NCBI RefSeq assembly: GCF_009931435.1
Contig: NZ_CP043414.1
Source: Escherichia coli
GTDB taxonomy: Bacteria; Pseudomonadota; Gammaproteobacteria; Enterobacterales; Enterobacteriaceae
Reading direction: 5' to 3' (one strand)
Length of the DNA stretch: 64,000 nt
Shown here: in pieces, positions 60,975 through 63,451 of the stretch
Position numbering within the stretch: the first letter of the stretch is position 1
Layout of the letters: every line of letters starts with the position of its first letter
The notes under the pieces: model-generated
Told to the model about the DNA's origin: nothing
Database searches by the model: none
The model's input: the letters and a program-made list of their open reading frames with translations, nothing else
Made by a program: the position numbers and the translations under genes

Positions 60975-62018
60975 TTATCCACGTAGTGTAGCCGCAAAAT
61001 CCAGCATACGATTGAGCGGCACCAGCGCCTTCTCTCGCAGCTTTTCCTCAACATGAACCTCGTGATTGCTTCCTTCCTGTTCTAATGCCTCTGCGATGGC
61101 CTGAAGGCCATTCATGGCCATCCACGGACAATGCGCGCAGCTGCGGCAGGTTGCGCCCTCACCCGCGGTTGGTGCTTCCAGTAACTCTTTATCTGGCACC
61201 GCCTGCTGCATTTTGTAGAAAATACCCCGATCGGTTGCCACGATAAGTCGCTGATGTGGCAATGTTTTCGCAGCAGCGATCAGTTGACTGGTGGAACCGA
61301 CCGCATCCGCCATATCTACAATAGCTTGCGGTGATTCTGGATGCACCAGTATGGCAGCATCCGGGTATTGTTTTTGCAAGCGGGTTAACGCCTGAGTCTT
61401 AAATTCATCATGCACAATGCAGGCACCCTGCCAGCATAAAATGTCTGCGCCCGTCTGTTTTTGCACGTAACGCCCCAGATGTTTGTCGGGTGCCCAGATG
61501 ATTTTTTCACCCAAACTATCCAGATGATCAATAAGTTCGACGGCAATGCTTGAAGTTACCACCCAATCTGCCCGCGCTTTTACCGCAGCAGAAGTGTTGG
61601 CGTAGACGACGACAGTATGATCGGGATGGGCATCGCAAAATGCGTTAAATTCTTCAACAGGGCAGCCGAGATCCAGTGAACATTCAGCCTGAAGTGTCGG
61701 CATCAGAATTGTTTTTTCCGGACTGAGAATTTTGGCGGTTTCTCCCATAAATCTCACCCCAGCGACTAACAACGTAGAAGCGGGATGCTTTGCACCGAAG
61801 CGCGCCATTTCCAGAGAATCAGAAATACAGCCACCGGTTTCTTCTGCCAGTTGTTGAATTTCGGGATCGGTATAGTAGTGGGCAACCATCACCGCATTAC
61901 GTTCTTTTAGCAGACGTTTTATCTTCTCGCGGTAATACGCTTTTTCATCAATGCTTAACGGCGTCGGCTTCGGGGGGAAAGGATAAATCGCCGCTTCAGG
62001 ATCAAACATCACGCTCAT
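60975..62018 (-). CDS. nadA: Quinolinate synthase NadA
   Basis: 347-aa ORF recognised as NadA. Confidence 0.95.
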
Positions 62019-62108: not shown

Positions 62109-62420
62109 AGATAGTCGAATGGTGGGGAAAAGTCACTCGAAATACGTATGAGATGACGAATGCCACACTTTGCGTCTTATTCCTCCGACGTAGAGTCGTT
62201 TACGCAGCAAGCGCGGAGTATGTCATCAGGGTCAAGAATTGAAATTGAGAGATGCCTGAATAGCAAAAAAGCGCCTTTAGGGCGCTTTTTTACATTGGTG
62301 GGTCGTGCAGGATGACTCACTTCGCTCGCCCTTCGGGCCGTCGCCGCAAGCGGCTCCGTTGTTTCGCTGCGCTCTACTCGAACCTGCAGCAGGTTCGAAT
62401 CTTTGAATATCGCAGATAGC

Positions 62421-62447
62421 AAAAAAGCGCCTTTAGGGCGCTTTTTT
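62421..62447 (-). terminator. Terminator hairpin immediately after the last tRNA-Lys (a second copy lies at about 62265-62291)
   Basis: aaaaaagcgcc-ttta-gggcgctttttt, a symmetric hairpin flanked by A/T runs on both sides. Confidence 0.6.
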
Positions 62448-62451
62448 ACAT

Positions 62452-62527
62452 TGGTGGGTCGTGCAGGATTCGAACCTGCGACCAATTGATTAAAAGTCAA
62501 CTGCTCTACCAACTGAGCTAACGACCC
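62452..62527 (-). tRNA. lysQ: tRNA-Lys (anticodon UUU)
   Basis: Reverse complement is a 76-nt tRNA-Lys including CCA: gggtcgttagctcagttggtagagcagttgacttttaatcaattggtcgcaggttcgaatcctgcacgacccacca. Confidence 0.9.
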
Positions 62528-62659
62528 CTTGCGGGATTATGCTGCTTTAATCATTCAGGATGGTGGGTCGTGCAGGATGACTCGACTTCGTCTCGCCCTT
62601 CGGGCCGTTGCTGACGCAACGTTATCCTTCACATTCTCTACCAGTAACCACCTTTAAAT

Positions 62660-62735: not shown

Positions 62736-62881
62736 ATACGGGTGTTACCTGAATGATTTCTACTCGGGACCAATCTTTAATATTGGTGGATCGTGCAGGA
62801 TGACTCGCTTCGCTCGCCCTACGGGCCGTTGCTGGCGCAACGTTATCCTTCACGCTTAACATCTGAGTTTGATGTTAAAAC

Positions 62882-63036: not shown

Positions 63037-63086
63037 GATACTGCGCTGGATACTACAAACTACTTCCACCGAACCCACCGCATTAG

Positions 63087-63164: not shown

Positions 63165-63240
63165 TGGTGGGTGATGACGGGTTCGAACCGCCGACCCCCT
63201 CCTTGTAAGGGAGGTGCTCTCCCAGCTGAGCTAATCACCC
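63165..63240 (-). tRNA. valT: tRNA-Val (anticodon UAC)
   Basis: 76-nt tRNA-Val differing from the 62961 copy at one T-arm position (ggttcgaac versus ggatcgaac on the plus strand). Confidence 0.9.
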
Positions 63241-63375
63241 GATACTACGCTGGATACTACAACTAACTAGGTTAGTGGTGGGTCGTGCAGGATGACTCGA
63301 CTTCGTCTCGCCCTTCGGGCCGTTGCTGACGCAACGTTATCCTTCACGTTTTACTACCGCTTCCACCTTAGCGAT

Positions 63376-63451
63376 TGGTGGGTCGTGCAGGATTCGAACC
63401 TGCGACCAATTGATTAAAAGTCAACTGCTCTACCAACTGAGCTAACGACCC
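63376..63451 (-). tRNA. lysT: tRNA-Lys (anticodon UUU)
   Basis: Identical 76-nt tRNA-Lys; first gene of the cluster after cpoB. Confidence 0.9.

Follow-up and report, generated by a model that had tools for sequence, protein, structure and literature searches.

A Lys-type RtT repeat unit between lysQ and nadA in Escherichia coli

Introduction

RtT elements were first defined at the tyrT locus, where the RtT/rttR repeats are reportedly 178-bp units present in about 3.14 copies. A stable, processed rtT RNA is released from the tyrT operon transcript, and this RNA has been proposed to act on tRNA maturation or the stringent response. Copies at tyrT also carry the tpr reading frame, which encodes a protamine-like protein and lies outside the Rfam definition of the family, and termination at tyrT relies on Rho. 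In K-12, the locus consists of tyrT, a spacer RtT, tyrV, and then three tandem units, each finishing in AATCCTTCCCCCACCACCA, the 3' end of tRNA-Tyr. In a full-text search for papers treating RtT outside tyrT, we came across no more than a brief reference to rttR.

Other well-described systems share single aspects of the locus considered here. Stable-RNA operons, such as rrnB with its T1-T2 pair, possess tandem intrinsic terminators. The T-loop is a known crossover position for tRNA-targeted integration. 3'ETS-leuZ is said to be a regulatory RNA derived from a tRNA spacer.

We analyzed the sequence between lysQ, the last tRNA-Lys gene of the lysT operon, and nadA in a 64,000-nt stretch of E. 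coli DNA (contig NZ_CP043414.1 of assembly GCF_009931435.1), hereafter the window. A sequence-only reading of this DNA had drawn attention to a duplicated tRNA 3' end and terminator bracketing a palindrome, and had offered three interpretations: a decayed tRNA gene, a tandem fail-safe terminator, or a small RNA. We find that the feature comprises 1.35 copies of a Lys-type RtT repeat unit, an element known to both Rfam and PGAP, and we consider this identity settled.

The lysQ RtT element resembles its tyrT counterpart in several respects. Both lie directly 3' of the last tRNA of their operon, and both are built from a tandem unit that starts with the tRNA 3' end and stops just before the next copy of that end. 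Moreover, both contain the core hairpins, including GCCCGAAGGGC, both bear the host T-arm once inverted and once in direct orientation, and both pass the Rfam gathering score. They differ in host (tRNA-Tyr versus tRNA-Lys), unit length (178 versus 156 bp), and copy number (3.14 versus 1.35). Unlike tyrT, in whose trailer sequence we saw no intrinsic terminator, the lysQ unit carries one; it also lacks a tpr-like ORF, and its outer stem is degenerate.

Results

Position of the element in the lysT operon

On the minus strand, the rightmost part of the window encodes pnuC, nadA, seven tRNA genes in one operon, and cpoB. This gene order agrees with K-12, and the best-matching complete E. coli genome shows 98.9% identity over 521 bp. 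Along the transcript, the tRNA genes run Lys (63451-63376), Val, Lys, Val, Lys, Lys, and Lys (62527-62452). The nadA ORF, 60975-62018(-), has its start codon at 62018 and the same orientation as the tRNA operon, and the feature under study lies between it and lysQ. Three further RtT matches, at 54-61 bits, occupy spacers within the operon, and the one closest to lysQ terminates in a pseudo-3' end of its own at 62561-62578.

62452-62527, minus strand: last tRNA-Lys(UUU), lysQ in K-12 naming (ARAGORN; Rfam tRNA, 79.2 bits; synteny with K-12 lysQ)
62561-62659, minus strand: short-form RtT in the lysZ-lysQ spacer (Rfam RtT, 60.6 bits; clean indel relative to Nissle 1917)
62784-62881, minus strand: short-form RtT in the lysY-lysZ spacer (Rfam RtT, 54.2 bits; clean indel relative to Nissle 1917)
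63276-63375, minus strand: short-form RtT in the lysT-valT spacer (Rfam RtT, 60.6 bits; clean indel relative to Nissle 1917 and O157:H7)

An exact 54-bp repeat encloses a 102-bp body

Downstream of and overlapping the 3' end of lysQ, we identified an exact direct repeat of 54 bp (100% identity) formed by 62260-62313 and 62416-62469, with mismatches immediately beyond each end. The duplication had been put at about 53 bp; it is real and exact, although one base longer than proposed, since the left coordinate given for it falls one base short. On the transcribed (minus) strand, each copy consists of ATCCTGCACGACCCACCA, the last 18 nt of tRNA-Lys, spanning the T-loop through the acceptor 3' strand to CCA, followed by ATGTAAAAAAGCGCCCTAAAGGCGCTTTTTTGCTAT, a 36-nt segment with an intrinsic terminator. 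An exact-match check bore out the order proposed by the sequence-only reading, such that the transcript proceeds from tRNA-Lys to terminator 1, a 102-nt body, a pseudo-3' end, and terminator 2. The inverted repeat that it had placed between the two copies is likewise perfect: a 9+1+9 palindrome, cgaacctgcagcaggttcg, at 62379-62397 within the 102-bp body.

62416-62469, minus strand: promoter-proximal 54-bp copy, with the true tRNA-Lys 3' end (62452-62469) and terminator 1 (repeat search; exact-match check)
62421-62447, minus strand: terminator 1, AAAAAAGCGCC-CTAAA-GGCGCTTTTTT, a symmetric hairpin with an A-tract 5' and a U-tract 3' (fold)
62314-62415, minus strand: 102-nt body (X) of a long-form RtT element, the sole non-duplicated part of the 156-bp unit (Rfam RF00391; PGAP)
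62376-62400, minus strand: T-arm palindrome hairpin, predicted as an 11-bp RNA stem (dG -15.0 kcal/mol, z -3.8)
62328-62358, minus strand: two conserved core hairpins (MFE structure; helices 4 and 5, paired 95% and 88%, the conservation of helix 5 being partly built in because it lies within the search pattern)
62260-62313, minus strand: promoter-distal 54-bp copy, with the pseudo-3' end and terminator 2 (repeat search; exact-match check)
62296-62313, minus strand: pseudo-3' end ATCCTGCACGACCCACCA, 18 nt (identical to 62452-62469)
62265-62291, minus strand: terminator 2, same sequence as terminator 1, about 245 nt 5' of the nadA start (fold)

The terminators, identical in sequence, each contain a GCGCC-CUAAA-GGCGC stem that is extended by A6/U6 and followed by a U-tract, and the hairpin folds with a predicted dG of -19.1 kcal/mol (z -6.2). 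A consensus terminator scanner did not list the lysQ terminators, probably because the stem extension takes up the A/T runs. With respect to chance, a perfect 9-bp palindrome is expected at about 4e-4 per 100 bp and a 54-bp exact repeat at a negligible frequency; a chance origin is not plausible for either one.

The element belongs to the RtT family

The Rfam RtT RNA model (RF00391, model positions 1-130) matches 62296-62418(-) at 48.0 bits against a gathering score of 45 (E 1e-8), a small margin, and the outer-stem pairs of the lysQ copy are marked non-canonical. The anatomy of the locus points the same way: the element lies directly 3' of lysQ and terminates in the 18-nt tRNA-Lys 3' end, and the sequence comprises 1.35 copies of a 156-bp unit whose period takes in that end. 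PGAP labels the homologous position "RtT sRNA" in E. coli MFDS1022581 and in a K-12-derived strain; the curated MG1655/K-12 record is without a feature at the lysQ and lysV RtT copies. Other Rfam families (AgrB, sraL, STnc, isrK, and others) score far under threshold and match the generic terminator hairpin only. Neither ARAGORN nor the Rfam tRNA model detected a tRNA cloverleaf in 62255-62451.

A small protein similar to Tpr was also considered. The transcribed strand contains no ATG-initiated ORF in 62296-62418, and we rejected this candidate. On the opposite strand, an Arg-rich 35-aa antisense ORF spans 62312-62419(+) and in all likelihood arises incidentally from the GAGTCAT junction.

Host T-arm copies and predicted structure

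The palindrome can be divided into GATTCGAACCTGC, the reverse complement of the tRNA-Lys T-arm GCAGGTTCGAATC, a single T, and GCAGGTTCGA, the T-arm itself. At the same position, Tyr-associated elements bear GAACCTTC...GAAGGTTCGA and Pro-associated elements GAACCTCC...GGAGGTTCGA, in each case matching their own host tRNA. Judging by these sequences, the palindrome is a standard RtT part composed of an inverted and a direct copy of the host tRNA T-arm. Together with the 18-nt 3' end, it accounts for all tRNA-derived parts of the lysQ element. In the RNA, the predicted palindrome hairpin pairs GAUUCGAACCUGC (the inverted tRNA-Lys T-arm copy) with GCAGGUUCGAG (the direct copy) across a U; the core hairpins are a GGAGCCGC-UUGC-GGCGAC-type stem at 62339-62358 and GCCC-GAA-GGGC at 62328-62338. 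The entire 123-nt RtT stretch shows no unusual stability (z -1.4).

An alignment of 37 long-form elements with Lys, Tyr, Pro, and Arg(CCG) hosts supports a common predicted architecture, in which an outer stem, formed by the pseudo-3' end with a complementary 5' segment, would enclose five hairpins, the T-arm palindrome being the first. Standard pairs fill 84.9% of cells, versus 31-39% when partners are slid by 1-3 columns, a comparison that favors the structure because it was drawn after viewing the same sequences. At 17 pairs both sides have changed, and 0 of 500 shuffles reach the observed covariation score; part of this covariation merely follows host identity, and helices 3 and 6, in the core, exhibit host-independent compensatory changes. 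For helix 2, the T-arm palindrome, pairing across host types reaches 92.5%, and its GC/UA/CG changes follow the host. The E. coli Lys long form has kept little of the outer stem (TTCAAAGAT, versus the CGTGCNGGAT-type in Erwinia and Rosenbergiella), which fits both the marginal Rfam score and a relaxed constraint on the E. coli lysQ copy.

A second module follows lysV

In K-12 the same module occurs 1.7 Mb away, behind lysV, which closes the valU-valX-valY-lysV operon. The two share their layout, their body, terminators that are reported to be identical (PMC4176162), and presence/absence polymorphism. By visual comparison, the 102-nt body of the K-12 lysV copy equals that of the K-12 lysQ copy, and the window body differs from the latter at 6 of 102 positions. 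Beyond its different locus, the lysV module is distinguished by a first terminator copy with one substitution (ACTAT), by a convergent downstream gene, xapR, and by a repeat that is 7 nt longer, as CTGCGAT, the first bases of the body, recurs past the second terminator. CTGCGAT-like bases also continue after the second terminator in several other genera; at lysQ, unrelated sequence follows directly. These junctions are compatible with a unit native to a lysV-type context that would have reached lysQ by ectopic conversion.

The unit is polymorphic within E. coli

We aligned the operon from the window, K-12, Nissle 1917, O157:H7 Z869, and MFDS1022581. In this five-sequence alignment, each RtT unit behaves as a clean block indel flanked by the tRNA-Lys 3'-end repeat. 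The terminal 156-bp indel is present in the window, K-12, and MFDS1022581, and absent from Nissle 1917 and O157. Nissle 1917 is without any RtT unit in this operon, O157 has also lost one tRNA-Lys gene, and K-12 possesses an extra RtT unit between lysW and valZ that is not in the window.

To extend this comparison, we turned to 5426 complete E. coli genomes, counting the body as present at 80% coverage or more. By this measure, the 102-nt body is found somewhere in 3190 of the 5426 genomes, and the long form is absent everywhere in 41%. Site occupancy was determined with junction-spanning queries, for which 80% coverage is attainable only at an occupied site. The lysQ-nadA site is occupied in 2513 of 5426 genomes (about 46%), leaving about 54% without a unit at this site, and the lysV-xapR site is occupied in 1911 of 5426. 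Some empty lysQ alleles (H77 and H78) have a flank 100% identical to that of the window, so turnover of the unit is recent. The lysQ RtT copy is dispensable, and many E. coli strains are without it; it is an already known, ordinary member of the RtT family.

Related modules occur across Enterobacterales

A scan of one genome per species with the degenerate core GCRACGRCCCGWAGGGYGAR returned at least 120 stretches. Among the matches listed, Pantoea sp. IMH, Klebsiella sp. BIGb0407, Erwinia persicina, Enterobacter, and Pluralibacter each carry a long Lys form with terminator in the interval that separates nadA from the final tRNA-Lys; in the first two genomes it comprises three tandem units at 156-bp spacing. 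A gltX-linked long Lys form after valU-valX-valY-lysV is found in Citrobacter, Leclercia, Pseudocitrobacter, Erwinia, and an E. coli strain. The arrangement at lysQ is thus widespread in Enterobacterales. In Erwinia persicina the nadA-linked and gltX-linked copies differ, indicating that concerted evolution is not universal. Core matches in Streptomyces, Acidobacteria, and Alphaproteobacteria are without stable-RNA context and fit the approximately 17 chance matches expected in 298 Gb. Phage-borne spread of the unit was considered and rejected; matches on viral contigs consist of host flanks only.

Transcription and termination

The processing of these operons in K-12 was described by Agrawal, Mohanty and Kushner (PMC4176162), who found the Rho-independent terminators of lysV and lysQ to be identical. 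Their northern blots place the full-length valU-lysV transcript at approximately 438 nt and the lysT-operon transcript at approximately 1100 nt, and the terminator is cut off by RNase P a few nucleotides past CCA (PMC4176162). In K-12 coordinates terminator 2 would add 156 nt, and the northern sizes therefore fit terminator 1 and not terminator 2. A promoter scan found no promoter-like site in the unit, and on this ground we set aside a small-RNA promoter of its own. The Term-seq table of Adams et al. contains only the mature lysQ CCA end, at 781652. K-12 contains four occurrences of the 54-mer, to which reads multi-map, so that short-read 3'-end and RNA-seq maps are ambiguous here.

Discussion

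The explanation that we favor, with a probability of roughly 0.85 for the whole, is that the locus holds 1.35 copies of an RtT unit subject to repeat-mediated turnover, with a body reached by read-through only and a second terminator carried along as a passenger. The 156-bp unit consists of the 18-nt tRNA-Lys 3' end, the 36-nt terminator segment, and the 102-nt RtT body, and the 54-bp repeat marks the restart of this unit as a second, partial copy, the Lys counterpart of the 178-bp repeats at tyrT. The DNA comparisons show that gain and loss of the unit involve one clean block flanked by the direct repeats. Loss may proceed via homologous recombination or replication slippage between the 54-bp repeats, or, in the spacers, between the 18-bp repeats; units could be restored or spread through ectopic gene conversion involving lysQ and lysV.

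At the RNA level, we propose that most operon transcripts end at terminator 1, directly 3' of lysQ, as the northern sizes suggest. The RtT body would then be transcribed solely through read-through, a conclusion drawn from those sizes and from the lack of a promoter-like site in the unit. The read-through RNA is predicted to form both the core hairpins and the T-arm palindrome hairpin and to halt at terminator 2, and it could be trimmed to the CCA of the pseudo-3' end. Terminator 2 is most likely a passenger of the duplication; any fail-safe effect on nadA would be a side benefit and not the reason for its existence.

Whether the second terminator might itself be what selection maintains deserves consideration, as the sequence-only reading had raised a tandem fail-safe terminator. 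Under this hypothesis, a double terminator prevents read-through from a strong stable-RNA promoter into the NadR-regulated nadA, which is on the same strand and starts at 62018, about 245 nt downstream. The strong terminator hairpin is in keeping with such a role, as are the RtT plus terminator modules that precede nadA in a number of genera, with as many as three in a row in Pantoea. Like rrnB T1-T2, the locus places two strong hairpin terminators in series after a strong stable-RNA promoter; unlike T1 and T2, these are exact copies within a repeat that includes a tRNA end, and E. coli strains vary in whether they carry the pair. At this site, about 54% of complete E. coli genomes have only one terminator, Nissle 1917 and O157:H7 among them, lysV carries the same module even though its next gene, xapR, is convergent, and the duplicated block holds an 18-nt tRNA end and a 102-nt structured body that a terminator does not need. 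The layout envisaged was correct, but selection for a fail-safe role is unsupported, both because terminator 2 is part of a 156-bp unit that over half of genomes are missing at this site and because the same module follows lysV ahead of a convergent gene. We consider this hypothesis quite unlikely. The interspecies comparison proposed by the sequence-only reading, in which conservation was to be the sign of function, did reveal a conserved module, yet one that is often lost within E. coli.

A function for the RNA itself is a related proposal, namely that the unit is a small RNA or cis-acting module subject to tRNA-like processing by RNase P and 3' exonucleases, with a role in tRNA maturation or the stringent response. 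The three interpretations originally offered are partly upheld, and "small RNA" comes nearest to the RtT identity, as borne out by the RF00391 match and the PGAP label. Beyond family membership (RF00391), conservation of the hairpins, with compensatory changes, extends over different genera and host tRNAs, and the junction of pseudo-3' end and terminator duplicates the context in which RNase P removes the lysV terminator (PMC4176162). A resemblance to 3'ETS-leuZ can also be drawn, in that both are non-tRNA parts of a tRNA operon that could be freed by tRNA processing enzymes; however, 3'ETS-leuZ precedes the operon terminator and the lysQ unit follows one, and the lysQ unit is not known to have an sRNA-pairing role. 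The lysQ copy sits behind a terminator of dG -19 and has no promoter-like site, its outer stem is degenerate in E. coli and the 123-nt stretch has a z of only -1.4, the long form is absent in 41% of E. coli, and Nissle 1917 is without every copy in the operon. We therefore regard a functional RNA from this copy as unlikely. Nonetheless, cross-genus conservation and compensatory hairpin changes argue for some selection on RNA or DNA structure, and the label of passenger may understate the role of the element.

Two accounts that derive the locus from other kinds of event fare worse. Direct repeats of a tRNA 3' end are, as is generally known, a classic signature of integration (reviewed in PMC9897764), and the pseudo-3' end begins in the T-loop, as in attL/attR repeats; the copies could on these grounds be the remains of a phage or island that integrated in the tRNA-Lys 3' end and was then almost wholly deleted. 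Yet only 102 bp separate the repeats, with neither cargo nor integrase, and the repeat continues 36 bp past the tRNA into the terminator. The interior, moreover, belongs to a chromosomal repeat family with homologous RtT sequences behind Tyr, Pro, Arg, and Ser tRNAs and 5S rRNA, the unit forms 156-bp tandem arrays, and the viral-contig matches again come down to host flanks. The short interior, the extension into the terminator, and the tandem arrays all disfavor an att relic, which we view as highly improbable. An origin as an eighth tRNA-Lys gene after lysQ, decayed until only its 3' end was left, would account for the intact 18-nt 3' end and for GCAGGTTCGA, the 5' half of the tRNA-Lys T-arm, in the body. 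However, the region has no tRNA model match, a terminator separates lysQ from the supposed gene, and the body aligns column-wise with the RtT of unrelated hosts and not with the tRNA-Lys D and anticodon arms. The missing model match and the alignment to RtT behind other tRNAs led us to reject this further suggestion of the sequence-only reading, to which we assign a very remote chance.

In itself the locus matters little, being an annotated member of a known repeat and RNA family. Owing to its repeats, the Lys/Val tRNA operon is a structural-variation hotspot, differing in the length of its spacers and in the numbers of tRNA genes and terminators, and this variation can confuse assembly and comparative analysis.

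Host-matching ends across stable RNA genes

The matches listed place elements with the same core behind at least seven tRNA species and 5S rRNA. Tentatively, on comparison of these sequences, RtT-like elements might constitute one widespread class of Gammaproteobacteria modules at the 3' ends of stable RNA genes, a proposal that we hold with considerable doubt. A core of approximately 60 nt would be shared between host-specific ends, arranged as an inverted host 3' copy and then a direct one that is split by the core; this part of the proposal is similarly speculative. So, too, is the suggestion that the direct copy runs exactly to the mature 3' end of the host. If true, the pattern would imply either a templated mode of generation and spread that copies the host 3' end or a conserved RNA function that mimics the terminal helix of the host, for example as a handle for processing by RNase P or 3' exonucleases. 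The host-matching pattern would merit a dedicated study, and it is the sole part of this analysis that might repay more work.

We scored an end as host-matching if 12 nt or more from the 3' end of the tRNA immediately upstream recur after the core. Among the 152 core matches listed, such ends were recorded for 37 of 41 elements behind Lys tRNAs, 27 of 31 behind Tyr, 13 of 14 behind Arg(ACG), 4 of 6 behind Pro(UGG), 1 of 1 behind Pro(CGG), and 1 of 2 behind Ser(UGA). The four Arg(CCG) cases copy fewer than 12 nt and have a recognizably related end along with host-matching T-arm copies. In nine further core matches the core is followed by AACTGCCAGGCAT, and Rfam identifies 5S rRNA directly upstream, in rrn distal spacers. 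These 5S-associated elements do not reach the RF00391 threshold; their anatomy consists of an inverted GGCAGTTCGCTACTC, a direct GAGAGTAGG, the core, and then the rest of the 5S 3' end.

Terminators flanking the RtT body and frames antisense to it

The two identical terminators that bracket the RtT body behind lysQ, at 62265-62291 and 62421-62447, are both symmetric, each consisting of a hairpin between A6 and T6, and by this sequence layout could work in either direction. A consensus terminator scan of the transcribed strand listed neither of them, likely because the stem takes up the A and T runs. On the strand opposite the RtT body lies an arginine-rich ORF of 35 amino acids, whose ATG arises from the GAGTCAT junction ahead of the pseudo-3′ end; comparable antisense frames overlie two spacer copies of RtT. 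The repeat probably gives rise to these frames incidentally.

Antisense ORFs over RtT copies in the window
62312-62419 (+), 35-aa ORF over the RtT body
62529-62657, similar ORF overlapping a spacer RtT copy
63292-63417, similar ORF overlapping a spacer RtT copy

Variation in the tRNA operon between strains

The lysW-valZ spacer of K-12 (620-768 of the retrieved stretch L005), whose counterpart in the window is 63037-63086, holds an extra short RtT unit; among the strains compared, this unit is missing in the window, Nissle 1917, O157:H7 and MFDS1022581. At 62784-62801 (-), in the lysY-lysZ spacer, the pseudo-3′ end reads ACGATCCACCA and differs from the real tRNA-Lys end by a C-to-T change that is common to the window and MFDS1022581 and found in neither K-12 nor O157:H7.

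Gene content and sequence also vary. The operon of O157:H7 Z869 (L004, operon region 1777-2469) contains six tRNA genes rather than seven, having lost one tRNA-Lys together with its spacer, a loss that recombination between identical tRNA-Lys genes would be expected to cause. The tRNA-Val at the valT position of the window, 63165-63240 (-), carries the T-loop TTCGAAC; the other Val copy of the window and the valT-position genes of K-12, Nissle 1917, O157:H7 and MFDS1022581 carry TTCGATC. The TTCGAAC gene still scores as a tRNA, at 66.7 bits.

RtT-like sequences at 5S rRNA genes and in a viral contig

Three retrieved stretches also carry an RtT-like core in the rrn operon spacer that separates 5S rRNA from the distal tRNA, which is Thr or Asp.

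RtT-like elements in 5S-distal tRNA spacers
L084, 297-449
L037, 205-392
L065, 80-231

The 5S 3′ end is copied twice around these cores, once inverted and once as a direct copy in split form; the elements end in AACTGCCAGGCAT. All three copies score below the gathering score of RF00391. A single core match, on the minus strand of L119, lies approximately 25 nt upstream of the 5′ end of a 5S rRNA gene (TGCCTGGCGGC...) rather than downstream of one, and is preceded by a distinct hairpin-rich sequence; this arrangement is unexplained by the pattern found at the other loci.

The valU-lysV operon flank occurs in L128, a prophage-type viral contig. Around 11042-11061 (-) of this contig, the RtT pseudo-3′ end stops after ATCC and gives way to unrelated sequence, a junction that may mark where integration or a rearrangement broke the pseudo-3′ end.
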